Shown here: positions 14,570-63,334 of the stretch, in pieces
How positions within the stretch are numbered: the stretch's first letter is position 1
How the letters are laid out: each line of letters opens with the position of its first letter
From: a virus
Lineage: Duplodnaviria > Caudoviricetes
Reading direction: 5' to 3' (one strand)
IMG/VR virus record: IMGVR_UViG_3300021431_000093
Coordinates: 36,005 to 100,004 of that record
DNA: 64,000 nucleotides
The notes under the pieces: model-generated
Told to the model about the DNA's origin: nothing
The model's input: only the letters and a program-made list of their open reading frames with translations
Database searches by the model: none
Position numbers and translations under genes: made by a program

Positions 14570-15964
14570 TTACTCAGCGTGAACAATTAATGCACCACCA
14601 TCACCAGTTGTGATAGAAATCTTACTGAGTAATAATGGGTTGATAATCTTCATATCGTAGAGAGTAGAGAAGCCCTGGCTCATTCTACCATCAGCGAAAC
14701 CAAGTAACTGAGTAGGAACAATTGGCATATAAGGAGCATAGATACCAACAGCAGTCTTACCATCAGCACCTAAAACACCAAGGTAGCAAACCTTTTCACC
14801 AATAGCAGGTGAAACGATTACCTTCATACCAGCGACTGTACCAGCAACATATGGACCATTAGCAACAGTGTTATTAGAAGCATTGAAGCCCTTAACGAAT
14901 GTTAAGATTGGCATAACATCTGGAGAAACTAACATCCAGTTAGGCATAAATCTACCGGTTCTCTTATAAACACGAGCCTTAGCTTCTTCTAACTTACGAG
15001 CAAAGCCTTCAGCCTTCATGGAATAAGAAATAGTATCAAGTTCTTCATCGACCCAAGTAATTCTATCAGCTGCAGGAAGTTCAGCATCTTTAGCATCAGC
15101 AGCAGCCTTAACTAAAAGAACAGCTTCACTATCAACTTCATACTCTAATTCAGCTTGAGCCTGCTGAGCAATAGTGGATTCGAAATCCATACCATAGTCT
15201 TGTTTAGCCTGGAAAGCAGCAAACTGAGAATATTCAACAGCTAATCTACGAGCTTTTGCAGTTAAAGCAATACCATTCATTCTAGCAACAACGGATGGTA
15301 ATTTGTCCTGAGGAATATACTGATTATCATAGATATATCTAACTTTATCACCAGCCTGAGCACCAGTAACAGTACCATCAGCAGCAACAGTTAATTTAGT
15401 ATCACCTTCAGAACCTTCACCAATTAAATAAGCTTCAACAACAGGAGTCCAAGAAAGTTTAAGATTAGTACCTAATGTTTCAACAACAGCCTGTCCAGAG
15501 TAACGGACTCTGTTTTCAGTCATAGGACCAAAACCTTCAAATGGGCTATTGATCTTGTTATTAACATTCCAAGCAGTCTGATTATACTTGCTCATTGCAG
15601 AAGTGAATGGATCTTCTTCTAATTCACCACCAGCACCACCTTTAGGCTCACCAAGAGCATATTCCATATAAGTAACATAGCCAGAGAAACTTGCCATTGG
15701 AGCAACCATGAAAATTTCATTGACGATGAAATTAGGAACAGCTAAAGCAGTAATATCCAAGCAGAATTGCTTGTAAGTACCAAGGTCAGCTCTCTGAGTA
15801 CCAGCAGCAACCTTAAATGCTTCATTTAAATAAGTAGCAGTATTGTGTAAGCACTGAGCAGTTAACATCTTCTTGCTGTTGCTCATCTTCTCACCAGAGT
15901 TCTTCTGAGCGTAGTACTTTTCACTAATAGCAAGTCTACCCTTATAAGATTCTAATAAATTCAT
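14570..15964 (-). CDS. Major capsid protein, T4 gp23-like (464 aa)
   Basis: PM....G.V.Y, TAKARRL, QDY..G.D.E, IYAPYMP motifs; YLNE candidate maturation site; GAAAGGA RBS. Confidence 0.95.
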   Translation of the reverse strand: MNLLESYKGRLAISEKYYAQKNSGEKMSNSKKMLTAQCLHNTATYLNEAFKVAAGTQRADLGTYKQFCLDITALAVPNFIVNEIFMVAPMASFSGYVTYMEYALGEPKGGAGGELEEDPFTSAMSKYNQTAWNVNNKINSPFEGFGPMTENRVRYSGQAVVETLGTNLKLSWTPVVEAYLIGEGSEGDTKLTVAADGTVTGAQAGDKVRYIYDNQYIPQDKLPSVVARMNGIALTAKARRLAVEYSQFAAFQAKQDYGMDFESTIAQQAQAELEYEVDSEAVLLVKAAADAKDAELPAADRITWVDEELDTISYSMKAEGFARKLEEAKARVYKRTGRFMPNWMLVSPDVMPILTFVKGFNASNNTVANGPYVAGTVAGMKVIVSPAIGEKVCYLGVLGADGKTAVGIYAPYMPIVPTQLLGFADGRMSQGFSTLYDMKIINPLLLSKISITTGDGGALIVHAE

Positions 15965-15980: not shown

Positions 15981-18125
15981 TTATTTAATCATCTGTAATA
16001 AGTAATCGGACACTTCATCATCAGCTAATCTATTACCTTTGATATATTCATTCTGAGATGATTTAACATTAAACTGAACATTTTCATTTAATCTAAATGG
16101 AAGTTTGCTCATATTTAATTTTTGTTCAACTAATTCATTGCAGATCGAATCAATATCCTTATAAGAATATGATTCATTTAATTGAGCCTTGATATTATCT
16201 ACTGAAAGACCACAAGCATCTGCCTTAACAGCGATGTATCTTTCTTTTGATTCTTTCAACGCTCTTTGGTACTTCTTCGTTAATGTAGTCATATCTGATA
16301 ATTTCTTATTAGATTTTTCTACACTTTCCTTCAATACCTTGATTTGATTCTCTAAATCAGAAATTTTATTATCTGATTCAGTAAGTTTTGAAATGTTTTC
16401 TTTCTTGAATGTGATTAAACTATTTAATCTTTCATTCTTTGATTCGATTAATCTGTCCTTGTAATCAAGATCACTATTAAGTTTTTCTACACTTTCTTCA
16501 AGTGATTTAACCTTTTTAGCTGTATCGCTTAAATTAGCAGATACTTTCTTGTACTTTGTTAATTCTTCATTCAATTTTGTTTCTTTTGCACTGCAAACTG
16601 ATAATTTTTCCTGAAGTGACAAATTATCCTTTTCTAATTCACCATTTTTCAATAGTGCTTCTTGAAGTTCTTTCATCAAATCTTCCCTGGTATTACCAGC
16701 ATCTTCTTCAACTACTTGATCTTCTTTATCTGAACAGCCATCTTCGCTGACTGATTCTTTATTAAATTTAGCAAGAGATTGACAAGCTTTTTGAATTTGA
16801 TTTAAATCATTATTTAAGAAAGCCTTAGTAATCTTATCTTTTTCTGAATTATAATCATATTGTTTATCATATTCCAAGATACGACCGGTCATAGCATTAA
16901 TTCTGGATAAGATTCCCATTAATTCTCTTTGTTTATCTGGATCAGTAGGAATATCTTCATTAAGGCTATCCTGCTCAAACTCTAAATCATCAGCATTCAT
17001 TGATAATTGATCTGCCAAATCTCTTAATTCACCTACTAAATCTTGAACTGTATCTCCATTAACTGCGTAAGAACCTCTTACTGCATTTCTGACTTCATAC
17101 ATTAAATCTTCAAGATTTCCAAATGTTTGCTCTAATTGACCTTGAATATGATCTCCCCAACCATCTTCATGTTCAAGTTCTTCATTTACTTGTTTTTCTA
17201 AAACATCTAATGAAGCAGAGATAATATTATCACCATCTCTATGAATACCTACATTACAAACAGTTGGTAAATTAGGAGTATCTAAATCACATAATTCATC
17301 AAAAATAGTACCTAAATCATCTTTTGTAACGTTATGATCAAGTTCCTTTCTTAACTGATAATGAACGTTACCAAATAACGTCTTACCTTTTCTTTCAACT
17401 TCTAAACCTAATTCAGCAAATTTATCTTCAATAGGTTTTAAATCTTCTTCTGTAGGTTCAACTAATTTTTCATCCAACTTAATATCTAAATTATCAAGTG
17501 TTTCTTTCATTATCTTTTTATCTTCCTCTGATGCTTTATCAAGTTCTTCAGTTAATCTTTGTTTTAAAGTCTTACCATACTTTTTATTTGCATCTAAAGA
17601 CTCAACGAATGATAATCTTGCACTTTCTACTGCAGGAATTTCTACAAGGTCAAATGCATTTAATTGGTATGTATCTGGATCAACTTCTTCATTACCATTG
17701 TAATCTTCTATAATATCTCCAGTACCTCTACTTGAAATACCAAATTTGTAACCATACTTTGCTAATTGATATGCAATTCTTCCGCAAGGTGTATCTACTA
17801 TATCAACATAAGCAATTAAATCACCCTTATTATCTTTCACAGGAGGTTCTGGCATAACAATTGCAATTTTCTCCATGTTGACATCTTCATAATCAGGGTG
17901 GCATAATTCACCAAATATTCCACCATTTTGGAAACGCTCTTTAATTAAATCTGAATTAAATAATTTTTCCCATAAATCCTGACTGTAATGACGTCCATTT
18001 CTTGTTGGAGCTGCAAAACTGGCAACTGGTCCATAGAGTCTACCTAAAATTCCTTTTTTAGATTTTTCTTCAGGTGATATATTTTTAAATTTCAATGAAG
18101 TATCTTCATTTAATTTTTTAATCAT
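15981..18125 (-). CDS. Prohead protease (gp21-like) fused to coiled-coil scaffold (714 aa)
   Basis: TRNGRHY, GELCHP, GISSRGTG, FDLVEIPA; long C-terminal coiled coil. Confidence 0.92.
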   Translation of the reverse strand: MIKKLNEDTSLKFKNISPEEKSKKGILGRLYGPVASFAAPTRNGRHYSQDLWEKLFNSDLIKERFQNGGIFGELCHPDYEDVNMEKIAIVMPEPPVKDNKGDLIAYVDIVDTPCGRIAYQLAKYGYKFGISSRGTGDIIEDYNGNEEVDPDTYQLNAFDLVEIPAVESARLSFVESLDANKKYGKTLKQRLTEELDKASEEDKKIMKETLDNLDIKLDEKLVEPTEEDLKPIEDKFAELGLEVERKGKTLFGNVHYQLRKELDHNVTKDDLGTIFDELCDLDTPNLPTVCNVGIHRDGDNIISASLDVLEKQVNEELEHEDGWGDHIQGQLEQTFGNLEDLMYEVRNAVRGSYAVNGDTVQDLVGELRDLADQLSMNADDLEFEQDSLNEDIPTDPDKQRELMGILSRINAMTGRILEYDKQYDYNSEKDKITKAFLNNDLNQIQKACQSLAKFNKESVSEDGCSDKEDQVVEEDAGNTREDLMKELQEALLKNGELEKDNLSLQEKLSVCSAKETKLNEELTKYKKVSANLSDTAKKVKSLEESVEKLNSDLDYKDRLIESKNERLNSLITFKKENISKLTESDNKISDLENQIKVLKESVEKSNKKLSDMTTLTKKYQRALKESKERYIAVKADACGLSVDNIKAQLNESYSYKDIDSICNELVEQKLNMSKLPFRLNENVQFNVKSSQNEYIKGNRLADDEVSDYLLQMIK

Positions 18126-41977: not shown

Positions 41978-44361
41978 TAACCCCTCCTTAATAAAGCATT
42001 AATTTCAGCTTGAGCATCTCCTAACTGACCCATAGCAGCTTGGTATTTAGCTTCGGCAGCAGCAACAGCCCTAGCATCTTCTTCATCAGTACCTTCAAGG
42101 TCTAATTCTACCATAGCAATTTGCTTACGAAGTTCCTTCAATCTTTGCTGTAATTCAGTTAATCTTTGTTTATTACGTCTTGATTCATCTGAACCATTTG
42201 TTCTTACTTGTTCAAGTTCACGTTGAGAACGATCAACTCTATCCTGTAAATTATTAATATTATTCTTTAGAGAAATATATCTTTCAAGTGGCTTCTGTAA
42301 TGATCTTTCTGAATTAGCATATCTCTTTCTAGCTTCAGCATCATTAATATCACCTTGTAATTCTTTGATACTATCATTTAATTTGTCAATCCTCTGTTGA
42401 TAATATCTCTTATCTGAATCACTTGTTGCATTTTTAATATACTCCTGATACTGTTTCAACTCTTTCTTATAACGATCAACTCTTTGACGTCTATAACTAC
42501 TACTATTCATCAAATCAACATTACCACGAATTTCTGGATCACCCCAATATTTAGAAGCAACACCTCTACTCTTTAAGTCAGAAACACTACCATATCTTGA
42601 TTCAGGATTTTCTCTCCTCTGACTTAATAAATCTGGATCTTTCTGACCTTCAGGTTTATGTTCATTAGTTACATAAATCTTCGATGCAATATTAAATAAA
42701 TGTTTAGCAGGTACATGTAAAGTATCCTTAATCTTCTGACCATTCTTTTTTACATATGCCAAATTGTCTGGTAACCATTCATCCCTGTGATTTAAACTTG
42801 GATATCCATTATCACGGAAATCTATTAATTTTCCATTGACTAATAATCTTACTTGTTTAGGATCTTCCTTATAAAGTTTATACCCTGTATTAGCATCTAC
42901 TTCCTGATAATCAGCATTCTGTAAATCTGTATTTGCTCCACTTCTTCCAGTATAGTTTGCTTGTTTATATGCTTTTGCTAAATCAGCTGGAATTTTTTCA
43001 TCTAATACTTCTTCATTTACCTTAAGAATATTATTCATTGCAATGTTGAAAGCATCTTCAAATATACCATCTCTATCAGGAACTTCTGGATGAGTACGCA
43101 TAAATGACTTTAATAAATTTGTAATATTATCAGCTAAAATAAAGATGTCATCATTCAACTCGTCTTCAAAATCCTCAGTTAAAACATCAGATGGCTCTTC
43201 AAGAGTTAATTTTTCTGATAAACCTTTAATTGGTTTTACTTCAAATTCATTAATCTCTTCAACATCCTTAACTTTATCTGCTAATTCCTTATTGACTTCT
43301 TTTTCATGTTCTTCAGCTGACTTTTCAATTTCCTTAGCTTGTTCTTCATCATTTTTGCCTAAAGAAATATTATCATTTATAATCAACTCTTCCGAAAGAT
43401 TTTTATTCATACCTAAACCCTCATTTAATTCATCTTTAATATGCTTAATTAAATTTAATTCATCATCTATACCATTTTTCGCTTTACCAAGTGCAGCTAT
43501 AACTTTAATTGTACCCTTATTAGCATTCCTTAAGATATAATCACCTGGTAATACATCTTTATGAGTATTTATAGTAATAGCATAAGTTGAATCACCAATA
43601 TCAACTAACTTATTTTGTTTAGCATTCTTTAAACCTAAATCTTCAGATGAATTAAATGTTACAACATTACCTTTACCATATTTTGTTCTTGCTAAATCAG
43701 TAAATCCATTCTCTTTAGCAAACTCACTGAATGTAGCGTAAGTTTCATTAGATGTAAATTTACTATTATTAGCTTTGTTTCTAACTGTAACAGCACTGAC
43801 ATTCATCAGATGATCAAGTTCATTAACTAATACAAATGAATACTTATCACCTTGAGATGGAGCACAGAACCAAGTAGCATTCATGTGAGCATAATGTACT
43901 TTAATTCTTTCCTTCATCAAATCAATGATTTCAGAATCTTTTAATCGAAGATTTACTGTGCCAGTCTTCTGATAATCACCAATTATTTCATCAGCAAAGT
44001 TTTTATTAAGATAATCAACAATGTCTTGTTTGCACTTAACATCAGCTTGAGTATCTCTTCCGCCTTCCTCTTCTGATGGATTTACATCAGGAATAAATGT
44101 TAACTTATCTCCATCAACTCTTAAAGCAAACTCACCTGCCTGAGCTGGTAAGTCTTTACATTCAATATAGAATAATGTTTTACCATCATTTTGTACAGCT
44201 ATATCTGGTTTAGAATTATCATTACCACCCATATGAGCAAATACAATACCTGGTAATTCAGCACCATACTTTTTATTGAGATAATCTACAGCTTCTTTTT
44301 CATAAGCTTCACCTGCATTATCTTCTGTAAGAATTAATTTATTTTCACCTAATATTTTCAT
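41977..44361 (-). CDS. Multi-module putative virion cargo protein with N-terminal PD-(D/E)xK nuclease (794 aa)
   Basis: GEAYE...KPDI...YIECK; L-x-E punctuation; start reassigned to ATG 44361 behind the late promoter and AAGGA RBS. Confidence 0.65.
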   Translation of the reverse strand: MKILGENKLILTEDNAGEAYEKEAVDYLNKKYGAELPGIVFAHMGGNDNSKPDIAVQNDGKTLFYIECKDLPAQAGEFALRVDGDKLTFIPDVNPSEEEGGRDTQADVKCKQDIVDYLNKNFADEIIGDYQKTGTVNLRLKDSEIIDLMKERIKVHYAHMNATWFCAPSQGDKYSFVLVNELDHLMNVSAVTVRNKANNSKFTSNETYATFSEFAKENGFTDLARTKYGKGNVVTFNSSEDLGLKNAKQNKLVDIGDSTYAITINTHKDVLPGDYILRNANKGTIKVIAALGKAKNGIDDELNLIKHIKDELNEGLGMNKNLSEELIINDNISLGKNDEEQAKEIEKSAEEHEKEVNKELADKVKDVEEINEFEVKPIKGLSEKLTLEEPSDVLTEDFEDELNDDIFILADNITNLLKSFMRTHPEVPDRDGIFEDAFNIAMNNILKVNEEVLDEKIPADLAKAYKQANYTGRSGANTDLQNADYQEVDANTGYKLYKEDPKQVRLLVNGKLIDFRDNGYPSLNHRDEWLPDNLAYVKKNGQKIKDTLHVPAKHLFNIASKIYVTNEHKPEGQKDPDLLSQRRENPESRYGSVSDLKSRGVASKYWGDPEIRGNVDLMNSSSYRRQRVDRYKKELKQYQEYIKNATSDSDKRYYQQRIDKLNDSIKELQGDINDAEARKRYANSERSLQKPLERYISLKNNINNLQDRVDRSQRELEQVRTNGSDESRRNKQRLTELQQRLKELRKQIAMVELDLEGTDEEDARAVAAAEAKYQAAMGQLGDAQAEINALLRRG

Positions 44362-44498: not shown

Positions 44499-46037
44499 TT
44501 ACAAGTACTTATCAATGTCTGATGAATCTTTTGTATCAACTTTTTTAGTTGGTAATTCTGCATCAGGATCACCTCATGGTCAAGTTGCTGTATCTTCATT
44601 AAGATTTTCTTCATTAACATCATCAATTAAATCTCTACGAATATCATTTGCTACATCAATAATAGCTTTAGCAGCTTCTTTCTCACCTGGATGCAAAGAT
44701 TTTCTCTTATTTAGTTGATCAACAGCATCTGATAATCTATATAATTCATTATGAATCCATCCTGCACCCTGACGAGCAATGTGTCTACCTTTATCAGTAG
44801 CAGCACTTTCATCTAAATCATCTTCCCAATCTTCATCATCAGCATCAGCTGGAAGAATCCTTGGTTCATCTAAATCATCATATACACCTTCATCAGTTAC
44901 AATAAATTCAATTCCTTTATCATCTTTATAAAGGTGTTTATTTTTACCTAAATCTTTAATGAATTCAAGATTATCATGAAATTCACCTGTTTCTTTATCA
45001 TATTCATCTAATAAATCTGCCATATCATATGTACCTTCCATATGAATTTCAACAGCTTCATTCAATGATTCTTCTTGCTCTCTACTTGCAAGAATCTCAT
45101 CATCATCTAATACTGAATTATATCCTGTCTTGTATTCTTTCTCAAACTGAACACCCTTACCTTGAACTAATTTATCACATGCTCTCATAAGAACATCCCA
45201 GTCATGTTGAGAAATATCTTGATCCCATGACATATCTAATGTGTCTGAATCTTCTAAATCAGAGCCTTCAAGGATACCCATTTCCTTAAAGAATGATTTT
45301 ACAACTCTAAAGAACTCAGGATACTGTACTTCAATTGAAATAGGATCATTATCATAAGAAGTAAATGGCATCTGAGTAAAATATTCTCTACCATACTCTT
45401 CTGATAAATCTTTAATTTCCTTTAATTCATCAGCTAACTTATTAGGATTCTTTGCTTTTGCTTCTGTTAACTCTTCAACAACATCTAAATCATTTTTTGC
45501 ATGATCCAAAACACCTTCAAGTAATGTCCAATCAAAAGGAATTAAATCAGCAATATCGTATACTTCAATATCTTCATCATCTTGGCCAGGATAAAGATTG
45601 TGCATTGTACTTAAAATATCTAATTTATCAAGTTGATCAATAAATTTATCTTGATCTTCAGCAAATCCTAAAATAGGGAATGCTTTTCTACCTTCCTCTT
45701 TCCAGTAAAGGTCTCCATTATTGTCTTCATAAATTTCACAATCTTCTCTAGCATCATTTAAAAGAACGCCAGGATCAACCAAATTAAAATTCTCATCTAA
45801 AACAAAACCACCAAGGAATTGATTTGAAATCATAGGAACAACTCTATATTCAAAGTCTTCCATTGCTTCATCATAGAATGCATCAGCATTATCACTTATA
45901 ATCTGATCCAATTCATCATCAGCTAATTGATCAACCATTTCCTGGTCGTACCAATTGGTCAACTCTAATCTCTTCTGATCAACTGGTAAATCAAGAATTT
46001 TATCTATATTACCTCTTGTACTCCAAATAGTTTTCAT
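44499..46037 (-). CDS. Acidic multi-module putative cargo protein (512 aa, code 4)
   Basis: Modules separated by ELTEA, ESLNEA, DLDES, NLNED. Confidence 0.6.
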
Positions 46038-46049: not shown

Positions 46050-47090
46050 TTAATTATGATCAGTTAATACCACTCCGGTATCTATATCAATACCATCAAT
46101 ATGGTGATTACGTAACCAATCGATTAATTTCTTATTTCCTGCTTTATGGAAATAAACTTTCGTATCAGTTCCATCTAACCAAGAATCATCTATATCTTTA
46201 ATAACACCAAAAATATATACACCTAAATTGATATTATCACAGAATGCTAACATATTCTTTGTTAATGAACTGACACCTCTTCCTAACTCTACTTCATTCA
46301 AATTTTCACACATTAAGAATAATGCTGTTCCAACTTCAGTTACAGAATCAGGAATTTCCATATCTTTAAAATAGGATTTAGCAAATGCTCCTGAACCAAT
46401 TGCTTCAAGACCATCAGGTAAATAAACTTGATGTGAATATAATTCAGACATTGCTTTTCTACCGATTCGTTTAATATTTTCAGGTACAGCAAATACATCA
46501 TCAGCTTTTTTAACTTTAACTAATGTATCACCTTCAATGATCATATTAGATACGTCAGGTAAACCTTTAACTGTAGGAGCATCCATAATACAGTCAACTG
46601 TATGATCTGGAGCATCCCAAATATCACATCTGAGAGGATTATCCTGATAAGGACAAACACATCATTTATCATATCCTTCTTTACCTTTACGATCAATAAA
46701 TACATAGTAACCTAAATATCTTGATTGAGTGTAACTATTGAAATATTCTTGACCTCTGGTTTCATGACCTGGATAATTACCTGCTATACATCACTTTGTA
46801 CCTTTACCATAGTACTTCATAGCATCATAGGTTTTACAATGTACTACTAATCATCTACCATCATCATAAACCTTTTCAGCTCCGGCCATTTCTTCTTTTC
46901 TCTTCTGATTTTTAGAAACATAATTTTTCATGTATGTTTCTAATTCTTGAGGAGTTGATTTACTGATCCAGTAATCCAAATTATTATAAGGTGCTGGATA
47001 TTTGGACCTATTATCGAAGAATTGAGCAGCTAATTCTTCACCTGCTCAATTACGGAGGTCCTTCCTATTATATTCAAGAAGTCGTTCCAT
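46050..47090 (-). CDS. YG.GTKWC-motif domain plus BspA-type leucine-rich repeats (346 aa, code 4)
   Basis: MERLLEY start with GGAG RBS; LPDGLEAIGSGAF and IPDSVTEVG repeats. Confidence 0.75.
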
Positions 47091-47100: not shown

Positions 47101-50100
47101 TTAATTTAATCTATAAGCAAATAAGTTATTACCTAACTCAATTTCTTCACCATCATAGTAAGAAATGAAATGAGCAACACCGTCTTCACTAATTGCTTCT
47201 TCAGCAACTTTATCAGTGTCAATATAATCTTTAGCCCAAATATCAAATGAATCACCGTACATATCTTTTACGAATGAAATCTTGCTATCTAAATCATCTA
47301 AACCTCTAAGGTATTCTAACATATCAGGATCATCTTCTGAATCTTCAAAATACTCAATTTCCTGCTCAATAATATCATCTATAGCATCTTCATCGATTGC
47401 ATTATCTAAAATCCAATCTTTAAAATGAGAAGTAAATGCATCAAGACCCATATCATCAAATAACATCTTAATTTCATCTACAGCTTTTTCATATGCTTCA
47501 TCTTCAGTACCAACAAAGTATTCTTCATTTCCTACTTCATAAAGTCCATCAGAATAACCATCTTCAATCTCATCAATATCAACACCTAAATGATCAGCTA
47601 ATGCACTAGCCTTAACATCACCAACTTCAGCTTCAGTTAATTTTTTAACTTTCATATTATCTTTATTTAAATCCTCTCTGACCCATCCGTCTCTCCATCA
47701 ATCAGTTGGAGCGAGAACTTTATCTCCATAAGTAGTAACTATATAAATAGGATCACCATCAGCTACCCATTTCCTAATTAAATCATTTTGACGTTTTAAA
47801 GCTCTTTCAGCTTCTACATCACCTGACTCCCATGAACCAGGTACATCATCTCCTGCTTTCTCACCTGTTCTACCGTTTTCAATATGATCATGACTTTCTC
47901 ATGCTGTACAGTAATCACATAGTGGAGGATACATCATATCATCAGTGAATTCACTTAATACTTCATCAAATGTCTCATTATTTAATGAAGCGAATTTTTC
48001 AATTGTTGCTGGAGTTACCTTATCCTCTCTACCGCAATAATAGCACTTAAATGTAGCACCATCAGGAGCAGCACTCTTATAAACTCTTGCTTTCTTAAAT
48101 CTTTCAACCTGCTCAGGAGTAAATTCTTTTACATCTTCATTAAGATTATTGATATCATCAGCATCTACAAAATCAACCTTTTCAATGCTATCTAAAATAT
48201 CTCTTCTTCTTCTGAAGTTAAATTTTCCATCACCAACTTCTTGAATATCTTTAGGATAATTCTCAGGATCATAGTATTTAGAATCATCAGATGGTTCACC
48301 ATATTCATCAATATCACCAGCCATGGCAGCATCTAACTGCCTAGCTCATCTAACAGCATCATCATAATTATCTGTTGTGAACTGAATCCAATTAATTCCA
48401 TACTCAACTTGACGATCACCAGTATCTCTATCGAAAATTAAATCATATCCTTTATGAGATTCATTTAAACTTTCGAACATCTTTTTATGTAACTTAAGAA
48501 TCTCTTCATCACTCATACTAGCACGGAGTACTGCTAATAACTCATCTTTTGTTAAATCATTATTATCTTCAGGAAGACCTGCCATATCAGCTAATGAATC
48601 ATAGCTTAAGCTATTAACCTTCGCTCTTTGATCAATTCTTTTCTGTCTTGCTCTTTCAGCCTTTGCTTTTTCTTTTCTTTCAGCAGCCTTCTGAGCTTTA
48701 ACTTGCTCTTTTTCAGCATCTAACTTCTCCTTATCAGCAAGTTTCTTTGCTCTAATTTCTTCAGGAGTCATATAACCAGGCATTCCATCAAATGCTGTAC
48801 CTTCATCTAATGATTCGTGGTACCCATTAGCAAACATCGCTTTACGTTGATCATCTGCAGCCTTTTTGGTCTTAAACTTTCCGTGTGTTCCTTCTTTACC
48901 TTTATTAACTCATTTATCACCTTGTTTAACAGTGTCTTCAGTTAATTTTTCATCGAACAATGAAAGTTGATCAGTTACTACTGCTTTATCTAAAGGTATC
49001 TCCACCCAAAGGTCTCTTCCACCATACTCATCAGCAACTAACCTTAATGCTTTAGGAAAATTATTTTCATCTTTTACGAATAAACCAGCAAACATCTCAT
49101 GGTCAGCTTTAAAATCATCTAATTCTTTTTTATCATGAATTACATAATCTTTTGCTATCTTTTTAGGAACATTATCATCTTCATTTAATTTTTCATAACC
49201 ATTAGCATCAACCATTCTTGCAAATGATTTTAAATCAGACATTTTACGATGATCAATTATTTTACCATTATCTATAATAGCAAACTGAATTTCACCATCT
49301 TCAGTAGGTTCTTCCATCTTAAGGATGATACCATTTTTATTTCTATATTTTGTACCTGGTTTTTCATCTATTACAAAATCTTCATCTAAATCATCAGTAG
49401 ACATTGCTTCTTTACGTTTATTAATATAATCAATAGCAACATCTTTTTTAGCTGTTAAATTATCCTTAACAAATGGATATTCTGATCTACTAGCATGTTT
49501 TAAAGCTCTATCATAAATTTCTTCAGCTGAAGCACCTTTTAATTTATCACAATATTTATTTAATACACTCTTTGCTGCAGATACCAATCCAACTTTTGTA
49601 GCTTCAACTAACTTAACTTCATAATGATCTTCAGGATATTCTTTCTTAACATCATCTATTGAATCCCATCGTCCACATTGAGCTGTAAATGATTTATTAG
49701 TGAGCTTATCCTTTATCCTATATTTAGGAACTGTTCTGAAATATCTATCCCTATCATTTTTATTATTCCACTTTGAACCAAGATAGAAATCACCCGACTC
49801 GCACAACTTTTCATCTATATCATCATCAATAGCCATTGTGTAATCAATATATAATGCTCTACAAACACCAAGGAAATCTTCCATTTCCATTTGACTGCAC
49901 CAAGCAGATCCTGTATTTACGATTTCATAAATCTTACTGGTATATCCAATGATACCTTCATACTCAAGATATTCATCTAATGCATCATATCCTTCTAAAG
50001 CATGTTCATAGATTTCATCGGTATATCCCATTATACCTTCCCACTCAAGGAATACTGCTAATGTATCACGAGGATCAGGGAAGCTAATTTCCATACCATT

Positions 50101-51783
50101 TTCATTTTCAAAAATATCTTCCTTAAGTTTCTTATCACAATTCTCATCTAAAATATAATCAAATTCATTAAGAGTTGCAACAAAATAACTGATAGGATCA
50201 GTGATAGTGATAGGTTCATCTTCACCGATTGTTTCATCATAAGTAACTAAATCATCATCAATATTTGTTATAACAACTTTAGTACCTGTGTCAGGTTCAA
50301 TAAATTCAGCTCCAACAAATAAATCATCTGAAGTTAAACCTTCATTAATATGATCATCACAATCTTCATTTAAATTATTTAAATAGAGAAATTGCTCATT
50401 CATATCATTCAAACTCATCTCTTTATTCTCCAACTCGACTTTTAAATCTCTTAAATTCTGTAAATAACCTCTGTTTCTGAACTCTTTAAAACATATATTT
50501 CCATCACCGAACTCCCCGTCCTTCATGATAGACTTTTGTCTTTGAAGATATATATCATCTATCAAATCATCTACTTCACTGACAGATGGGTCAGAATTAA
50601 TCAGGTCATTATATCTATCTTCAAATGGTTGAATTAATTCTTGTACATGTTCAGGATCAATATCAGGAACATCCACTTGCTCAGGTTCTTTTAACCAACC
50701 ATCTTTAAGTGAATATACTCCATTAGAATTAGCATGAACTTCATCTGGTTCTACATAAACTTCAGCTTCAATACCATTTAAAGTAGGATCATATTTATTA
50801 TTAAATAAAGATTTATATGCTAAATAAACCTTCATTGCTAAATCTTCTTGATCAGGATAAACTGAGGTATCAGCTATAATATGAATATCAACATCTGAAT
50901 CAGGAGAGTAATTATAATTTGCATTACTTCCGATAATTGCGATATCCTTAACATCCAATTCTACATCATTTTCTTTAAGATTATCATCAAACTTCTGTAC
51001 AATCTCTTCAATCTTATCTCTAACTTCAGGTTTTAATTCATTGTTTTCATCCCAAAGTTTAGGATTAAGTGTATCGTGTTTTTCAATTGCTTCATCTACC
51101 ATAGAAACCTGCTTTGCTTGTCTGCTCTTCCCAAATAATCAAGGATAGTTAGGATTTGATTTATCACTGCATTTTGGATCAGTTGAATTCCATATATTAT
51201 CACCAACTTCAAAATCATATTTATTACCTATTTCAATTCCAGTAATTGGTCTATCACTAGCTATTAATGATTCAGCATAACTATATGCATCATTAATTCT
51301 ATTAAAATATTTAATAAATCTTGGATTTTTAAAATCTGACCAACTTAATTTATCTCCTTTAGTGTAATAAATCTTAACTCAATAATTACCTTTACTATTA
51401 TCTTCATTACACTTAACTGATTCATTTGTACTACTTTGCTGATCCTTATACTTCTTAATAACTTCTTGAGCCTTTTTAATATGTCTAGGATCAGTATCAT
51501 GTTTAAGTATCAATTTTGCAGCTTCTAAATCTCTTTTAGTGATTAAATCTTCATTCATCCTGTCATCCCCAATTGGTTTACTAAATCTTATTAAATAATC
51601 AACTCCATTGTCAGAATTATTATTATAATCAAGGTTCTTACCATTAACATCAGAGTAATAATGCTCAAGTATACTAACAGCTATCTGTACATCTGACTTA
51701 TCTTGAACCTTGTAAACTCCTCTGTCAAGAGTAAAGTTACCAGTCAAATCTTTTAAATCATTTAAGATTTCATTAAAAGTCAT
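47101..51783 (-). CDS. 1560-aa polyprotein: Pol-beta-type nucleotidyltransferase, many small modules, ArdA-like acidic C-terminus (code 4)
   Basis: Five ORF-track fragments share one frame with only TGA between them (51379, 51139, 48910, 48346, 47899, 47698); GGAGG RBS; IIGSNANYNY...SDVDIH. Confidence 0.8.
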
Positions 51784-51813
51784 ACTGATCTTTCCTCCCA
51801 ACTATATTATATA

Positions 51814-51824
51814 TAATTTTAGCA
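51814..51824 (-). promoter_or_regulatory. Putative late promoter (variant TGCTAAAATTA)
   Basis: Motif upstream of the polyprotein RBS. Confidence 0.65.
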
Positions 51825-51983: not shown

Positions 51984-52006
51984 AAAACCGGATACTGTCC
52001 GGTTTT
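51984..52006. terminator. Terminator ending the early recA-KTSC operon
   Basis: AAAACCGGA-TACTG-TCCGGTTTT. Confidence 0.75.
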
Positions 52007-52211
52007 AGTTTAATCTTTCATATTCAAATTTAGTTTTAATTGATGAATTCATATATCTACCTTTAGAATCAGAATCCATAAGTGATTCATAAATTACTTT
52101 AGGTACATTTTTATACTTATAAATTGCACCTGATTGATATTGGATATAAAGATTTTCATTTTCATATCCTACACTATCGATGTTAGATGATTTTACTTTC
52201 TTTAATTCCAT
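52005..52211 (-). CDS. KTSC-domain protein
   Basis: VKSSNI.SVGY...Y.Y.NVP..Y..L..S.SKG.Y.N..IK. Confidence 0.88.
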   Translation of the reverse strand: MELKKVKSSNIDSVGYENENLYIQYQSGAIYKYKNVPKVIYESLMDSDSKGRYMNSSIKTKFEYERLN

Positions 52212-53251
52212 TATTCAATAATTTCTCCTGTCTCTGGGTTTACATCATAAACGGGATTCAATTCAACACCCATCAATTTATTTTTAACCATTTCAGTAAG
52301 TTCAGCTAATTTATCAGGATTTTCATTATAATACTCTGTAACTTTTTTAAGACCTTGGAATCTCTGACCGTCATGAGTAGTCATCCACGCACCAGCTTTT
52401 TCGATAAATCCATAATCAACTGCCAAATCAATTGCTTCACCTTTAGCAGAGAATCCATCTCCAAAAATCATTGTAGCTTCACATACTTTCATTGGTACTG
52501 CTAACTTATTTTTAACACATTTTACTTTAACATGTGTACCAATAACTTCATCTCCTGATTTAATAGATGTAGTCTTTCTTAACTCAATTCTTTGTGAAGC
52601 GAAGAATTTTAAAGCATTTCCGCCTGTAGTTGTTTCAGGATTTCCCATTGAGAATCCTGTGGAAATCTTCATTCTGATCTGATTAATAAAAATAACTGCA
52701 CAATTGTGTTCATTTAATGAACCAGTTAATTTTCTCATTGCCTTACTCATCATTCTAGCAAGTAAACCAATTGTGACGTCTGACATTTCTCCATCTAATT
52801 CAGCTTGAGGTGTAAGTGCTGCAACTGAGTCAACTATAATAAGATTTACTTCACCTGACTTTACTAATGCATCAACAATCTCAAGTGCCTGTTCACCAGA
52901 TGATGGTTGTGTGAAAATTAAATCATTTGTATTAACACCTAAATGAGCAGCATATGTAGTATCAAGAGCATTTTCTACATCAACATAAGCAACTCTACCG
53001 CCATTTTTCTGACATTCAGCTGCAAACTGTAAACATAAAGTTGTTTTACCTGAAGACTCTGCACCATAAATTTCAGTGATACGACCATATCCAATACCAC
53101 CACCAAGTACTTTATCAATTAATAATGAACCTGATGATAGCATATTATGAGTAATAGGTTCAGTATCACCTAATGTCATAATAGTACCTTTACCATAAGT
53201 TTTATTTAACTTATCTAGTGTGTCCTTAAGACTTTTTGGAAGTTCTGCCAT
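52211..53251 (-). CDS. recA: RecA recombinase
   Basis: GAESSGKTT, IVDSVAAL, FINQIR, GGNALKFFAS, KNK. Confidence 0.97.
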   Translation of the reverse strand: MAELPKSLKDTLDKLNKTYGKGTIMTLGDTEPITHNMLSSGSLLIDKVLGGGIGYGRITEIYGAESSGKTTLCLQFAAECQKNGGRVAYVDVENALDTTYAAHLGVNTNDLIFTQPSSGEQALEIVDALVKSGEVNLIIVDSVAALTPQAELDGEMSDVTIGLLARMMSKAMRKLTGSLNEHNCAVIFINQIRMKISTGFSMGNPETTTGGNALKFFASQRIELRKTTSIKSGDEVIGTHVKVKCVKNKLAVPMKVCEATMIFGDGFSAKGEAIDLAVDYGFIEKAGAWMTTHDGQRFQGLKKVTEYYNENPDKLAELTEMVKNKLMGVELNPVYDVNPETGEIIE

Positions 53252-53585
53252 TATTCTCCTTTACTAATTTATTATATAGATCATAAGATAATTTTATAAT
53301 CTGTTCAGCAAAGCTTTCTGTAAAGTTTGCTACTATTTCTTCAATTTCTGCATTAGTTATTTTAGTTGGTTCAGCATCTGATGTAAAACCATATGACCAC
53401 CTGAATGCATGAGCAACTTCATGAATAATAGTACTTATTGTCTGACTTTTATTCATTCCACTGTTGATAATAATTTGATTCTGTAAATAAGATGTTAAAC
53501 CGCATGTAACTTCATTCAAATCTTCATCTTCAGGATCAATAAAACCTATTACCCAATCATGATTATTTACTTTAAAATGTACCAT
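53226..53585 (-). CDS. HExxH zinc metallopeptidase-like (ImmA/IrrE-type) protein
   Basis: TIIHEVAHA...EEIVAN. Confidence 0.7.
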   Translation of the reverse strand: MVHFKVNNHDWVIGFIDPEDEDLNEVTCGLTSYLQNQIIINSGMNKSQTISTIIHEVAHAFRWSYGFTSDAEPTKITNAEIEEIVANFTESFAEQIIKLSYDLYNKLVKENNGRTSKKS

Positions 53586-53681
53586 TTCCCTCCTGATTTA
53601 CTCCAATTAAGCAGGAGTCATTTTAATTAAATATATAATTACTATATTAAATTTTATAATAATGTCTCAGAATAAGCGGGA

Positions 53682-54032
53682 TTAATCCAGGTAATTTTTA
53701 CCAAATCTTTTAATAAACAAATTAACTCTATCTTCCCATGGTAATTCATGATCAGTATAAGTATTTATCCACACTTTTTCTGCATTCTGTTTTATTTTTA
53801 AATCTAACTCATGATCAAAATGTACACTGAAATTTGACATATTGTGATGACTTCCACATAAAGGAAGTACCATACCGTCCTCTTTTGATTTTGATCTATT
53901 ACCATTTGATCCAAAAAATACTTCATGCAGTGCAACTGCTGAAGTACTTCCGCATAATGCACATCTATCAAGAGATGGAACAAGGATAGAAAATCTATCC
54001 TTGTCCTTTATCTTATCTTTTTTACTAGCCAT
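53682..54032 (-). CDS. HNH-like zinc-finger nuclease (Ref/DUF968-like)
   Basis: CALCG..LHEVFFG...LPLCGSHH...VH. Confidence 0.7.
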   Translation of the reverse strand: MASKKDKIKDKDRFSILVPSLDRCALCGSTSAVALHEVFFGSNGNRSKSKEDGMVLPLCGSHHNMSNFSVHFDHELDLKIKQNAEKVWINTYTDHELPWEDRVNLFIKRFGKNYLD

Positions 54033-54040
54033 GAATACCT

Positions 54041-54412
54041 TTAAAAGGTTGCTTCAATTTCACCGAAGATTGCATCGAAGTCAATTGGATTATCTTCTTC
54101 AGCTCTAGGACAATTTTCACAATCTTCATCTTCACATTCATCACAGTCGAAGTATTCTTCACCGTCTTCGGACTGATATTCAGCTTCCATAGCTTCTTCA
54201 GCTGCCTTCTGTGCAGCTTTAACTTCAGTTACCATTGCTTTGGTATAAGCACAGAGACCATCAATTCCTTCGATGTCAGAATCACCAAGATTGATTGAAA
54301 CGAAGTCTTCATCTTTAATCTTCTTATCAGCAACGAAGTACAGAAGGTCAAGATAATTATCGAAATCAGCAGTTACAGTAGCATTTGAATCTTTAAACTT
54401 AATATTGAACAT
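54041..54412 (-). CDS. Acidic hypothetical protein with Cys cluster
   Basis: GAGGT RBS and own promoter; CDEC...CENC. Confidence 0.7.
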   Translation of the reverse strand: MFNIKFKDSNATVTADFDNYLDLLYFVADKKIKDEDFVSINLGDSDIEGIDGLCAYTKAMVTEVKAAQKAAEEAMEAEYQSEDGEEYFDCDECEDEDCENCPRAEEDNPIDFDAIFGEIEATF

Positions 54413-54438
54413 TTAACTTACCTCTTTTCTATAGTTAT

Positions 54439-54467
54439 ATAATAACAAATTGTAGATTGTATGTAAA
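54439..54467 (-). promoter_or_regulatory. Early sigma70-type promoter
   Basis: TTTACA-17 bp-TATTAT with TGn extension. Confidence 0.75.
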
Positions 54468-54725
54468 CTAAATTTTTTCATTAAGGATAACCTTTTCTTT
54501 TTTATTTAACTTATCTATATCCTTATTGACTCTAATCAGCTTTTTTACAAATAAAACTTTCAATTTCCTTGTAAATTCTTTCAACCATTTAAAAATATCA
54601 AGTCCAAAGAACCATGAAAATTCAACTTTAACTACCCATACAAAGAATATCGCCATTACAATGCATGATTCTAAAAGGACAAGAAGTCCCATTGTTTTCA
54701 TAATAGCTTGTGCTGCTTCTACCAT
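54468..54725 (-). CDS. Small membrane protein
   Basis: Hydrophobic N-terminal helix, basic tail, AGGAGG RBS. Confidence 0.65.
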   Translation of the reverse strand: MVEAAQAIMKTMGLLVLLESCIVMAIFFVWVVKVEFSWFFGLDIFKWLKEFTRKLKVLFVKKLIRVNKDIDKLNKKEKVILNEKI

Positions 54726-54976
54726 GGAAATTTCCTCCTATGCTTCATTCCTATAAAATAATCCGTATCAATATACATTGGGAAAGATGGTTTTTCAAGT
54801 AACCATCTAGTTTTATCTCTGAGAAGTCCTGCTTCAGTATTTTCAAATCTTCTTAATAATATATTATTTTTATTGTGCTTTGGTTTATAATATATTTCAC
54901 ATACATATAAACCAAAACCTGCATTATAAGTTTCATACTTAAGATTTTTGAATCCGTAATATTCAATATTTGTCAT
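54719..54976 (-). CDS. Hypothetical protein
   Basis: GGAGGT RBS before ATG 54976. Confidence 0.6.
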   Translation of the reverse strand: MTNIEYYGFKNLKYETYNAGFGLYVCEIYYKPKHNKNNILLRRFENTEAGLLRDKTRWLLEKPSFPMYIDTDYFIGMKHRRKFPW

Positions 54977-54988
54977 ACGTACCTCCAA

Positions 54989-55471
54989 TTAGAACGACCA
55001 ATCGTAATGGTAGCTTTTTACTCCGAAACTAATTTTTCCACTTAAATCAAAGTATCTCTTGTAATAACCTTTCTCTTTAAGTGATTTCAACTCTTTAGCT
55101 GTGCAGTAGTTTTCCTTTGTATATGTAACTTCCTGCTTCCATTTATTGTATCTATATACCCAAGTTTCAGGCTCAGGTTCTTCCTCATGTTCCCTGTAAG
55201 TATCAGGGAAATATTTTCTTAAGTAGTCATTCATTTCATCAGCTGTTTTAAAATACATCCAATTTTGATGACCCATTCCACCTGGTTTATCGTGATCCGC
55301 ACATACATGATACTGTCTAACTTTGATCCTCTTCTGATTTTCTACATCTACTACATAGTAGCAAGTTCTGTCTGACCAGTAGTACATCGTAATGTCCATG
55401 CCAGGTTTAATTTCAGGAACTGATCTTCCTTCTTCCAATCTATTTATTAAATTTCCATACCACTTACCCAT
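54989..55471 (-). CDS. Hypothetical protein (160 aa; six Trp, all TGG)
   Basis: GGAGGT RBS before ATG 55471. Confidence 0.7.
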   Translation of the reverse strand: MGKWYGNLINRLEEGRSVPEIKPGMDITMYYWSDRTCYYVVDVENQKRIKVRQYHVCADHDKPGGMGHQNWMYFKTADEMNDYLRKYFPDTYREHEEEPEPETWVYRYNKWKQEVTYTKENYCTAKELKSLKEKGYYKRYFDLSGKISFGVKSYHYDWSF

Positions 55472-55472
55472 T

Positions 55473-55841
55473 TTAATACCTCCAATCAACTGATGAAACT
55501 TTATAACAAGGACCATACTTTGTATCTACTTTTTTGACATTGATGTTTGTAATTTCTTTTGAATTTACTGGTTTATACTCCACGAATTCCCAATCACGCC
55601 ATGAATTATCGTCCCTGTTCATAAAGAACTTAATACTGAAATCAAACATATCTTTCTTATTTGTGAATAAGACTGAATTAAATGCTTGATACTGTAAGTC
55701 AGTTACGATGATAGGATTCTTTTCAACTGACCTTGTATTGAATTGAATATAGGAGTAGCATTTCTTTCCATACACCTGTCTAGGTTTTCTGAAAGTGTAT
55801 AAAGTGTTTTTTGTCTCTGCTGTCTTGACTGTGTATTTCAT
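55473..55841 (-). CDS. Hypothetical protein
   Basis: AGGAGGTG RBS. Confidence 0.7.
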   Translation of the reverse strand: MKYTVKTAETKNTLYTFRKPRQVYGKKCYSYIQFNTRSVEKNPIIVTDLQYQAFNSVLFTNKKDMFDFSIKFFMNRDDNSWRDWEFVEYKPVNSKEITNINVKKVDTKYGPCYKVSSVDWRY

Positions 55842-55852
55842 TTTATCACCTC

Positions 55853-56026
55853 CTAATATTCAATGTAAAGTCCACCAGAAACTGTATGATCAGCTGTTCT
55901 TACTTCAGTGTATCTTGAAGTATTTCTGAGAAGTTTATTTACAAACTTATCGAACTGATCTTTATATCCAAATCCCTTATTTTTAAGAATACCGTTATCT
56001 CTATAGCTGACTTCATATCTATACAT
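55853..56026 (-). CDS. Small hypothetical protein (57 aa), absent from the ORF track
   Basis: MYRYEVSYRDNG...LYIEY; GAGGT RBS directly behind an early promoter. Confidence 0.65.
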   Translation of the reverse strand: MYRYEVSYRDNGILKNKGFGYKDQFDKFVNKLLRNTSRYTEVRTADHTVSGGLYIEY

Positions 56027-56050
56027 TTTTCTTACCTCTTTTCTGATTTA

Positions 56051-56079
56051 ATAATAACAAAAATAAAATGGTATGTAAA
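56051..56079 (-). promoter_or_regulatory. Early sigma70-type promoter
   Basis: TTTACA-17 bp-TATTAT with TGn extension. Confidence 0.75.
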
Positions 56080-56085
56080 CTAAAT

Positions 56086-56286
56086 TTACCTACCATTTAA
56101 TCTTTTTATTTCATCTACACAATCATTCCATCCATGTACATAATCATTAAACCAATCTGAACCACATGGTACTTTCTTTTTAGGTATTTTAATATTACTG
56201 CGTATAAAACTATCTACAATGAAATTTAAATCAGATAATACTTTATCTAAATCAGGTATATTACTAGGTAACAAGTTTAATTTCAT
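56086..56286 (-). CDS. Hypothetical protein
   Basis: AGGAG RBS before ATG 56286; ends GWNDCVDEI. Confidence 0.6.
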   Translation of the reverse strand: MKLNLLPSNIPDLDKVLSDLNFIVDSFIRSNIKIPKKKVPCGSDWFNDYVHGWNDCVDEIKRLNGR

Positions 56287-56304
56287 ATTTATTCTCCTAA
56301 TTAT

Positions 56305-56333
56305 ATTATATAACACATTTCAATGATTGTAAA
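56305..56333 (-). promoter_or_regulatory. Early sigma70-type promoter
   Basis: TTTACA-17 bp-TATAAT. Confidence 0.75.
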
Positions 56334-56335
56334 CT

Positions 56336-56364
56336 AAAAAAAGGATAGACATATGTCTATCCTT
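56336..56364 (-). terminator. Rho-independent terminator
   Basis: AAGGATAGAC-ATAT-GTCTATCCTT plus T run. Confidence 0.8.
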
Positions 56365-56377: not shown

Positions 56378-58888
56378 TTATTTTAAAGCATATTTAAGTT
56401 CTTTGAATAACTTATATGCATCATCTTCACTAAATGGAACAATCTCTTTAAACATTTCGAAATTGTCATCTTTTACCAATTGACGAGCAATTGTAGCTGA
56501 AGCTCTTTCAACAGGATCAGCAGATGTTTTTGATCTTTCACCAGCATTAACAAACTTTATACCTTTACCACCAAAATCACTAAAATAATAAACTAATTCA
56601 CCTTTTTTATTTAATTTACCATTATAATTTTTAATGACTGATGTGATATCATCTGCTCCACCAATTCTATCTCCACCGCCTACATAAATTATGCCAGTAT
56701 AACCATCATTATAAAGGTCTTTTAATACTTCAATAATTGTTTTTGAACTTGTTTCAATTACATCCACTTTATTACCGAAGGCTTTTTTACACCAATTTAT
56801 TTTACTTTCATATGAAAGTGGATCATCAGGTCCAACTGTATGAGATAAATATAGTTTTGCTTTTTCACCTACACCTTTAGCTGCATCAACCATTGAATTA
56901 ATTAATCTTTCATGTCCAATAGTAGGAGGATTTAATCTTCCCCAACCTACTACAGCTATCTTGCTCTTATCTTCATTTAATAATTTAATAAACTTATTAA
57001 ATGTTCCCATATCAGAAACTTGAGTTGCTGGACCAAATTCTTCATTAAATGCCATTATATCAGCATCTTTACTATTTGTAACTCTATACATTTCCCTGAA
57101 ATAACCTGATCCACCTTTAACTTCTTCAATGGTTTTTATAAGAAGTTGTTTTTCGTGATCATCTTCATAATCACCACCTTCAAGTTTATCTTGTAAGAAT
57201 TCCCTAAATGACATGCTCTTTCTAGGATCATCATCACTATAATCTCCAAAAGGATCTTTTCTTATAGCATCCCATTCATAGAATAGGTTCATCTTAAATT
57301 GTTCATCTTTTGGAAGTCTCTTTGTATCATCCCAGTCAAGTGAATCTTTATATTCATCAGTATCTTCAATACTTGATTCAATACTTAATATTGCTGAATT
57401 GATTTTTGATCCAACTCCTCTTAAGGAAGTATCTAATCCAAAATTATTTAACCAAAAATCATGAACAGCTTTATGCTTTTTATTACCATCATCATGATAT
57501 AAACCATATGTAAAATAATCAAGATATGATTTATCTAAAATCATTTCAATTACTTTATCAATAAATTTCTGTTTATTATTACCTAATAATTTTTCAAGTT
57601 TACTGTCAAGTTGAATATCATCAACATCTTCAGTTAATGATTCATTGGCATTATGTTCAAATCCTGATTCAATATCTGGATCCCTATTTAAAGATGAGAA
57701 CGTTGACCTATCCACCAACTTAACAATATTCCCATCTTGATCACTCATAGCAATACCTTCAGCTTCAGCAGGGAAATAACCTTTGGTTTTAGATTTATAG
57801 AACGTTGAATAATCATACTGTGACCTCTTAAAACCTGCCCACAGTAACATTTTAATATTAGCTGCTGTATTAAGAATATCAACTAAATTAACTAATGTAC
57901 TCTTATTGTCATCGACAATATTTGCAAGTTTTTCTACATCTGAATTGTATTTAGAGGTTGCCTTATCAATGCCTTGTTGCGTCTTTAATGAAGGTAATTT
58001 CTTATTAAATTCATTTGTTTGTTTATCTTTAATATAATCCTTTAATTCATTTATAAAAGTATTAATATTTATATTGACTTGCTTTTTATCTGCAAGGTTG
58101 GCATTTTCAAAAGTATTTCAATAATTCATAAAAGTTGAATTGTTGACTAACTCTTCATATTTATGATCATTAATCAACTTCTGTTCTTTCTGTTTTAATT
58201 CATTGAACATCGATTCAACTTTATCCAAGCTATAATCTTCTTTACCTTTAGGAGCATTTACAGCTGGAGACATAATATAAAAGTTATCAGGAACATTGAT
58301 TCTCGTAGGATCAACTTTAAATCCTTGAGTCATCTCTCCATTCTTTGGTTTATAGATAGTATGGAAAGCAATACCAAAGTCAGCATTCTTTACTTGATTA
58401 TATCCTGGATTTTCTTCACTAAAAGCATAGATAATTTTATTAGGTTGGAAAGTAAGATAATTTTTACCACCAATTTCTCTTTCTTCTACTTCATCATGCG
58501 TAAATAAGCAATCACCTTGCCATGCTTCACCTGATGGAATATAAGGAGCTAATTTTAATCCTCATTTAAGTGTTTCAGCCATGTCTGGTCTATCACCATA
58601 TTTTGCATCAATTTCTGCATCCGATGATAATGCATGTTTAGGACCATTTACAAATCCTTTTAAAGCAATAGAATCATCAGGATATCCATCTACATGATGT
58701 CATACAAATAATGCAGGTGCACCATCTATCTTGGTAGTTATATTAAGATTATCATTATTGTCTTCAAATCTATTGATGAAGTTTTCTATCTTGTAATTAA
58801 GTTCATCAAGGCCTTCTTTACCAAAAAGAACCAAATCTTCAAAATGCTGTTGATGGACATTTTTTCTGACTTCTTTTAATACTTTCAT
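56378..58888 (-). CDS. Ligase-like (KxDG) domain fused to HIGH-type cytidylyltransferase-like domain (836 aa, code 4)
   Basis: TTKIDGAP, QGD, FQPN, GIAFHT, EGIA, VKLVDR; then GRLNPPTIGHE, DPL, GGDR, AGER, SAT.AR. Confidence 0.75.
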
Positions 58889-60306: not shown

Positions 60307-60398
60307 TTAAATTTCCTCCTTATGAAATTAAATTCTTTTTCGTAATCCTATTTACGAATTTATATAACAATTACTTGAGGTGTAGAGTAACTTATATA

Positions 60399-63332: not shown

Positions 63333-63334
63333 AT

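Follow-up and report, generated by a model that had tools for sequence, protein, structure and literature searches.

A modular, highly acidic phage polyprotein with prohead-protease-type sites at its joints: a candidate capsid-loaded precursor

Can a single phage gene encode a whole series of unrelated protein modules destined for separation by the enzyme that matures the phage head? This question is raised by a locus on the minus strand, between positions 47101 and 51783, of a 64,000-nucleotide stretch of the caudovirus record IMGVR_UViG_3300021431_000093, which represents an uncultured jumbo phage. This stretch, hereafter the window, covers the right-hand 64 kb of a contig of 100,004 bp, on which almost all genes lie on the minus strand. 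A preliminary description had proposed that the locus hides a polyprotein punctuated by L-x-E motifs, which would be packaged into the capsid and cut by the prohead protease of the phage into small effectors. Our analysis recovers one gene for an extremely acidic chain (approximately 23% Asp plus Glu versus approximately 13% Lys plus Arg) of about 15 modules, whose joints carry a motif that is enriched elsewhere in this phage only in head-associated proteins. On balance, we lean towards the explanation that the product is a precursor loaded into the capsid and cut at its joints by the prohead protease into deliverable pieces, a reading to which we attach modest confidence. The coordinates of all features are collected in Table 1.

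Under translation table 11, the minus strand of this locus contains five separate open reading frames (ORFs). When TGA is read as Trp, they fuse into one frame of 1,566 codons starting at TTG, from which modules and Trp residues are numbered here; the likely start of the polyprotein is the ATG at 51783, which leaves 1,560 amino acids. As the preliminary description had stated, this frame is broken solely by six TGA codons (W141, W221, W964, W1152, W1301 and W1368), and every motif string listed there is found in the rebuilt sequence. All six TGA codons lie inside modules and none at joints, and the plus strand opposite the gene contains no competing ORF of at least 100 amino acids. W964 is a Trp conserved family-wide, and W1152, encoded by TGA here, is encoded by TGG in the orthologue of the IMG/VR contig L001. 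TGA is therefore a Trp codon in this phage, given that the W1152 codon is TGG in such a close relative. TGA occurs inside nearly all structural genes, where reading it as Trp restores full-length capsid, tail and terminase genes, but not in the early-looking genes at 52005-56352 and 60019-63170.

We consider it very improbable that the locus instead holds five genes ending at TGA, or one gene broken by mutation. The five ORFs obtained with table 11 would be expected in that case, and a search of the 100-kb contig for a suppressor tRNA, which returned only tRNA-Met, also speaks for it. Against it stand the use of TGA throughout the late genes, the exchange of TGA and TGG at a conserved Trp, the location of the TGA codons within modules and the uninterrupted ORFs of relatives. 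An RNA search near 63100-64000 likewise revealed no suppressor or other RNA beyond tRNA-Met. Complete relatives with terminal repeats measure 200-290 kb; the contig is therefore probably about half a genome, and a suppressor tRNA may sit in the missing half. The polyprotein genes of two relatives, L003 and L004, contain zero TGA codons, with 20 and 9 TGG codons, respectively, so the gene family is not tied to recoding. The earlier claim that standard-code annotation would miss the gene is thus correct for this phage but not for these two, which carry the same type of gene without TGA.

The pattern L-x-E-[DAGS] occurs 12 times in the polyprotein, where about 3.1-3.2 copies are expected, and none of 3,000 shuffled sequences reaches 12, which bears out the enrichment on which the preliminary description depended. 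The class of residues following the Glu (P1') was refined after inspection of the data, whereas the T4 rule [LI]-x-E was set a priori, and this simpler rule is also enriched, with 34 copies against 20 expected (p=0.003). Beside the 12 sites, further joints read M/V/I/C-x-E. All controls were flat: neither the reversed motif, nor its Asp version, nor shifted spacings, nor an aromatic or small residue at P3 gave enrichment. When the pattern was scanned across the proteome of the phage, no protein was enriched in it beyond the polyprotein itself, the capsid protein, the fusion of protease and scaffold, and three small neighbours (Table 1).

This restricted distribution can be compared with the head genes of the same phage. 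In a BLASTP comparison of its protease with T4 gp21, both the catalytic His (H-P) and Ser (S-S-R-G) motifs align; the protease at 15981-18125 that the preliminary description had pointed to is thus of the gp21 type, and it is the presumed processing enzyme. The preliminary description had also placed the motif type in the capsid protein and the scaffold, and both carry it. In a MAFFT alignment, the capsid sequence Y-L-N-E/A (the slash follows the Glu) falls in the same columns as the T4 gp23 site (L-T-E/A) and the gp24 site (I-N-E/L), and L/I/M-x-E is kept at this position across related phages, whose protease-scaffold fusions are motif-enriched in seven of eight loci. The nearest cultured capsid proteins, from Bacillus, Listeria and Streptococcus myophages, are only 23-31% identical; assembly labels suggest that the related contigs are possibly rumen-derived. 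The protease itself begins with a seven-residue leader ending in L-N-E, and this L-N-E-7 is similar to L-I-E-9, a site close to the N-terminus of T4 gp21 (PMC9026906). Including the protease, three other late proteins have leaders that end in L-x-E, namely a 599-residue acidic protein and the product of the gene at 41977-44361 in addition.

Comparison with relatives locates the module boundaries at the same motif. An exhaustive profile search with residues 465-1566 found 896 relatives, and a word-based search found 52 long relatives. Relatives that are 80-99% identical differ by insertions and deletions of whole modules, and all large indels are bounded by the motif on both sides; modules are thus gained and lost exactly at the motif, the outcome that the preliminary description had anticipated for homologues. 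Among close relatives, residues 875-955 are present only in this phage, and P0004 and P0165 lack residues 734-807. Residues 1223-1390 are missing from relatives of 1,202 amino acids, and the joint that follows residue 1110 holds insertions of 41-193 amino acids in other relatives. Among distant relatives, breaks in homology recur at (D/E)-S-L-x-E, and modules are shuffled, with a different order for example in P0015. Of the end points internal to the alignments, 43% fall no more than 10 residues from a site, compared with 15% under the null (p=0.0015). At the joints, P3 (Leu, Ile or Val) and P1 (Glu) are kept, while P2 and P1' vary. The 18-nt direct repeats flanking M10, which encode E-K-L-x-E-D, resemble the trace that short-homology recombination would leave on inserting or deleting a cassette. 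M10 is also found between the same kind of joints in an unrelated 366-residue protein (P0053). M11 is shared by dozens of phage proteins, several of which carry ArdA, ART-PolyVal, amidoligase, DUF5661 or LRR_5 domains, and relatives that share modules carry ART-PolyVal, ArdA, DUF5661 and DUF6782; the presence of conflict domains in M11-bearing proteins ties the polyprotein family to the polyvalent proteins (PMC5512222).

The AlphaFold model, which covers residues 230-1400, has a mean predicted local distance difference test score (pLDDT) of 59.6, low because the alignment is shallow, and consists of blocks scoring 70-90 separated by short segments below 50. Within the alignment-covered part, these low segments make up approximately 17% of the length and contain seven of the eight L-x-E-[DAGS] sites, for which a binomial estimate gives about 2.5e-5. 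The placement of the motifs in linkers, which the preliminary description had suggested checking by structure prediction, is thus predicted by the model for seven of the eight testable motifs. The sole testable site outside a low-confidence segment is G-L-P-E/D at residues 1076-1079, in M12.

By its sequence motifs, M4 is the only recognisable module family, a predicted Pol-beta-type nucleotidyltransferase (NTase). It matches PF01909 (NTP_transf_2) at 21.6 bits, against a cut-off of 21, over residues 274-322 with a G-S ... D-x-D motif, and matches phrog_36119 at 3.8e-31; a Foldseek search with the 1,171-residue model returned only weak NTase-type rows (ANT-type adenylyltransferases and CD-NTases). 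The family of the C-terminal module, M15, runs to hundreds of metagenomic proteins, some stand-alone and some fused. Its model is an alpha/beta fold with a pLDDT of 96, for which no solved structural relative was found (Foldseek best E 1.2; VIA best Z 5.5), and matches in BFVD were uncharacterised viral proteins only. A tblastn search found no M15 members in cultured phages or plasmids, where only the NTase module of the polyprotein was matched (Lak phages and cyanophages). ArdA was considered as an identity for M15 but gained no support: PF07275 matched neither M15 nor nine stand-alone relatives at E<=0.1, structure searches gave no ArdA signal, and the sole shared feature is acidity. For the polyprotein as a whole, no match was obtained among PDB sequences and nothing meaningful in NCBIfam; neither internal repeats nor paralogues elsewhere in the genome were found, and Pfam, PHROGs and NCBIfam detected in it none of the hallmark conflict domains (MPTase, ART, ArdA/ArdC, PBECR etc.).

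Table 1. Features of the polyprotein locus and of the head-associated genes of the phage, in window coordinates; motif copies are those of L-x-E-[DAGS].
Feature	Position	Strand	Motif copies, observed vs expected	Remarks
Polyprotein gene	47101..51783	-		1,560 codons + TAA stop; six in-frame TGA=Trp
ORFs under table 11	47101-47655, 47899-48324, 48346-48837, 48910-51102, 51379-51801	-		
Ribosome-binding site GGGAGG	51794..51799	-		10 nt 5' of ATG at 51783
Late-promoter-like motif GCTAAAWTTAW of polyprotein gene	51813..51823	-		common to head genes
TGA=Trp codons of polyprotein gene	51379-51381, 51139-51141, 48910-48912, 48346-48348, 47899-47901, 47698-47700	-		
M1, aa 7-84	51550..51783	-		N-terminal; conserved at start of most relatives; ends M-N-E/D
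M2, aa 85-133	51403..51549	-		short, helical-looking; ends C-N-E/D, homologous to V/M-N-E joints in relatives
M3, aa 134-237	51091..51402	-		not in any close relative; 2 TGA codons; ends V-D-E/A
M4, aa 238-479	50365..51090	-		predicted Pol-beta-type nucleotidyltransferase; stand-alone protein of ~240 aa in Lak phages and cyanophages
Octapeptide between two sites (aa 480-487) and M5 (aa 488-561)	50119..50364	-		M5 small, beta-rich
M6, aa 562-668	49798..50118	-		helical, internal duplicated segment; also in short proteins P0087 and P0136
M7, aa 669-733	49603..49797	-		
M8, aa 734-807	49381..49602	-		missing in P0004 and P0165; deletion runs exactly from L-V-E/ to L-D-E/
M9, aa 808-874	49180..49380	-		
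M10, aa 875-955	48937..49179	-		in no close relative; flanked by 18-nt direct repeats
Direct repeats flanking M10	48934-48954 and 49177-49197	-		17/18 identical
M11, aa 956-1000	48802..48936	-		45 aa; 70-90% identical in many phage proteins, always after L-x-E/D-T
M12, aa 1001-1114	48460..48801	-		long charged helix + helical part; internal G-L-P-E/D
M13, aa 1115-1222	48136..48459	-		alpha/beta
M14, aa 1223-1390	47632..48135	-		Cys-rich; not in 1,202-aa relatives; 2 TGA codons
M15, aa 1391-1566	47104..47631	-		conserved, C-terminal; net charge -45; also stand-alone family of ~170 aa
Major capsid protein	14570..15964	-	4 vs 0.7	gp23-type (PF07068); Y-L-N-E/A
Prohead protease	15981..18125	-	9 vs 2.2	T4 gp21/Peptidase_S77 type, fused to coiled-coil scaffold-like tail; PF03420, phrog_207
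Late-motif copy inside protease-scaffold ORF	16762-16772	-		near coiled-coil start
Portal	18670-20568	-		gp20-type
599-residue acidic protein	10517-12316	-	7 vs 2.1	behind late motif
Small neighbour	14111-14503		2 vs 0.2	
Late protein	41977-44361	-		own late motif
Protein just downstream of polyprotein	44499-46037	-	5 vs 1.6	
LRR_5 protein	46050-47090	-		BspA-type leucine-rich repeats; directly after polyprotein
All other phage proteins together			~36 vs ~33	

The expression signals of the gene agree with those of the head genes. The motif GCTAAAWTTAW occurs nine times in the window against 0.69 expected, always on the minus strand, and eight of the nine copies lie just upstream of genes. These include the protease gene, three other head-region genes (among them that of the 599-residue acidic protein), the genes at 41977-44361 and 56378-58888, and the polyprotein gene, so that the late promoter motif which the preliminary description had placed ahead of the polyprotein gene is both enriched and shared with head genes. 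Early genes have promoters of the TTTACA / TATAAT (sigma70-like) type. The exact 12-nt string adjoining the start codon was tried as a promoter and rejected, as it is not enriched, and a stricter 15-nt pattern gave only three sites. Relatives conserve the gene order RecA - KTSC - polyprotein, in most cases with an LRR_5 protein behind it; together with the late motif, this order indicates that the polyprotein gene opens a late block.

In the mechanism that we propose, the joint sequence, hydrophobic-x-Glu and mostly L-x-E followed by Asp, Ala, Gly or Ser, would be the recognition rule of the gp21-type protease of the phage. A precursor of about 15 independently folding modules would be expressed late, alongside the head proteins, and would enter the prohead core, probably by means of the conserved N-terminal module M1, a candidate capsid-loading domain. 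Once activated, the protease would cut after each joint Glu while it trims the capsid protein and dismantles the scaffold. The resulting pieces of 5-28 kDa would stay in the head, enter the next host with the DNA and act ahead of all phage gene expression. With a joint of its own, each cassette could be inserted, deleted or moved to another place in the order without loss of processing.

Several points weigh against this explanation. Loading, cleavage, retention in the DNA-filled head, ejection and effector roles are all steps that we infer. The N-terminus of the polyprotein does not have a short T4-type leader ending in L-x-E: no L-x-E occurs within the first 80 residues, residues 7-9 are L-N-D, and a candidate site first appears at residue 84. 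The motif that includes the P1' class was defined post hoc, and the a priori rule is enriched less strongly; some M11-sharing proteins of other phages show little enrichment, and indel gaps in the alignment could partly cause the low pLDDT at the joints. Only one module has a recognisable function, which makes the effector label a guess. In addition, the strong acidity sets the chain apart from the T4 internal proteins, which are basic, and brings it closer to a scaffold that is degraded and expelled. This acidity calls for caution, and we therefore retain a scaffold-like role with discarded fragments as a possibility.

In such a role, the chain would be an accessory prohead-core or scaffold protein, loaded and cut, and its acidic fragments would be discarded or take part in head assembly; we judge this unlikely, though it deserves consideration. 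It would account for a very acidic composition like that of T4 gp22 and of the scaffold tail of this phage, and it has a parallel in giant-phage propeptides, which are cleaved at more than one site and removed from the head (PMC10052503; PMC9026906). It sits poorly with modules that are folded and 45-242 amino acids long, one of them an enzyme fold, and that are large for exit through capsid pores; with the fast turnover of cassettes between 90%-identical phages, which is typical of conflict genes rather than of assembly parts; and with the ArdA and ART domains of related chains. Slightly less probable still, in our estimation, is an uncleaved multidomain polyvalent protein that acts as one chain, packaged or not, and in which the acidic S-L-x-E serves as a flexible linker and recombination joint. 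The N4 vRNAP and ArdC polyvalent proteins are transferred uncleaved (PMC5512222), and the 18-nt direct repeat around M10 is what recombination at microhomology would be expected to leave. Such a protein leaves unexplained, however, why this pattern, and not its reverse or Asp version, shows an enrichment that is restricted to the capsid protein, the scaffold-protease and proteins encoded nearby, and why it is found at the capsid maturation site homologous to that of T4. A capsid-loaded precursor cut at its joints accordingly remains the explanation that we prefer.

The components of this explanation are known: the T4 capsid-targeting sequence with gp21 processing, the ejection proteins of giant phages, and polyvalent proteins. 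In T4, the internal proteins IPI-III and Alt carry a capsid-targeting sequence and are processed by gp21 (PMC9026906). The present system resembles them in its T4-type head with gp20, gp21 and gp23 homologues, in the hydrophobic-x-Glu rule and in late expression, and, if our reading is correct, in proteins that are made late and packed so that they can act at an early stage in the next cell. The T4 internal proteins, however, are separate, small and basic, each with a 10-residue leader that is cut once, whereas here a single very acidic chain of 1,560 amino acids contains some 15 internal sites and lacks a short leader, with M1 (78 amino acids) as the candidate loading signal. Exchanging the Glu of the site for Asp abolishes processing in T4 while leaving loading intact. 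The polyvalent proteins of phages and conjugative elements (Iyer, Burroughs, Anand, de Souza and Aravind 2017; PMC5512222) combine 2-15 unrelated domains per polypeptide with strong mosaicism, comparable with the roughly 15 modules shuffled among relatives here; they are predicted to be packaged and delivered, and relatives that share modules with our chain carry ART-PolyVal, ArdA and DUF5661. Their release has been proposed to occur through embedded peptidases, a zincin MPTase or a C-terminal assemblin-like domain (PMC5512222), whereas no peptidase domain was found in the present chain, whose joints carry a site for the prohead protease, which would act in trans.

The ejection or inner-body proteins of phiKZ, 201phi2-1 and SPN3US are likewise cut after Glu by a gp21-like protease at a three-residue motif, sometimes at several sites (PMC10052503, PMC5694885). 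In those phages the cuts remove and fragment an N-terminal propeptide at the motif A/S/G-x-E, leaving one mature C-terminal product, whereas in this phage the L-x-E sites separate a series of folded cassettes. RNA-virus polyproteins offer a further analogy, that of one translation product with conserved joints between functional units, which here would be cut as well; they differ in that the protease of the phage lies outside the chain, no domain homology exists and the processing compartment would be the prohead. In the literature we found no paper on polyproteins whose every joint is a site for a prohead protease in trans.

Several further features of the head region and the neighbourhood were observed. 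A copy of the late motif lies inside the protease-scaffold ORF, near the start of the coiled coil, so that the scaffold-like tail might also be produced as a separate protein, comparable with the split between gp21 and gp22 in T4. The leader of the 599-residue acidic protein ends in L-K-E/A, and another site follows ten residues later; this protein matched no family, and from its sequence it is likely another protease substrate or a head-internal protein. Two late proteins are encoded just downstream of the polyprotein gene. The one at 41977-44361 has a 13-residue leader ending in L-T-E/D. Homologues of the other, at 44499-46037, adjoin the polyprotein in L003 and L004 and are also motif-enriched. 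In L007 and L008, as in this phage, an LRR_5 protein comes immediately after the polyprotein, and LRR_5 is fused into the M11-bearing polyproteins P0175 and P0178.

If the proposed explanation is correct, one gene would let the phage deliver a dozen or more proteins before transcription begins, swappable as cassettes, and the roughly 15 module families, most of them without known fold or function, would be candidate injected proteins, including the very acidic M15 family. The T4 paradigm of targeting and processing and the concept of polyvalent proteins would both be extended to processing in trans by the prohead protease, and the motif common to the capsid propeptide junction and the scaffold would provide a sequence rule for finding cargo in metagenomic phages. 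More tentatively, the joint peptide may be a dual adaptor, at once prohead-protease site and recombination joint, which together with the constant M1 and M15 would form a plug-in system letting a large clade of uncultured 200-290 kb phages re-assort capsid-delivered first-strike proteins. Such an adaptor, if real, would point to many new injected anti-defence proteins and would offer a natural scaffold by which foreign proteins could be brought into capsids.

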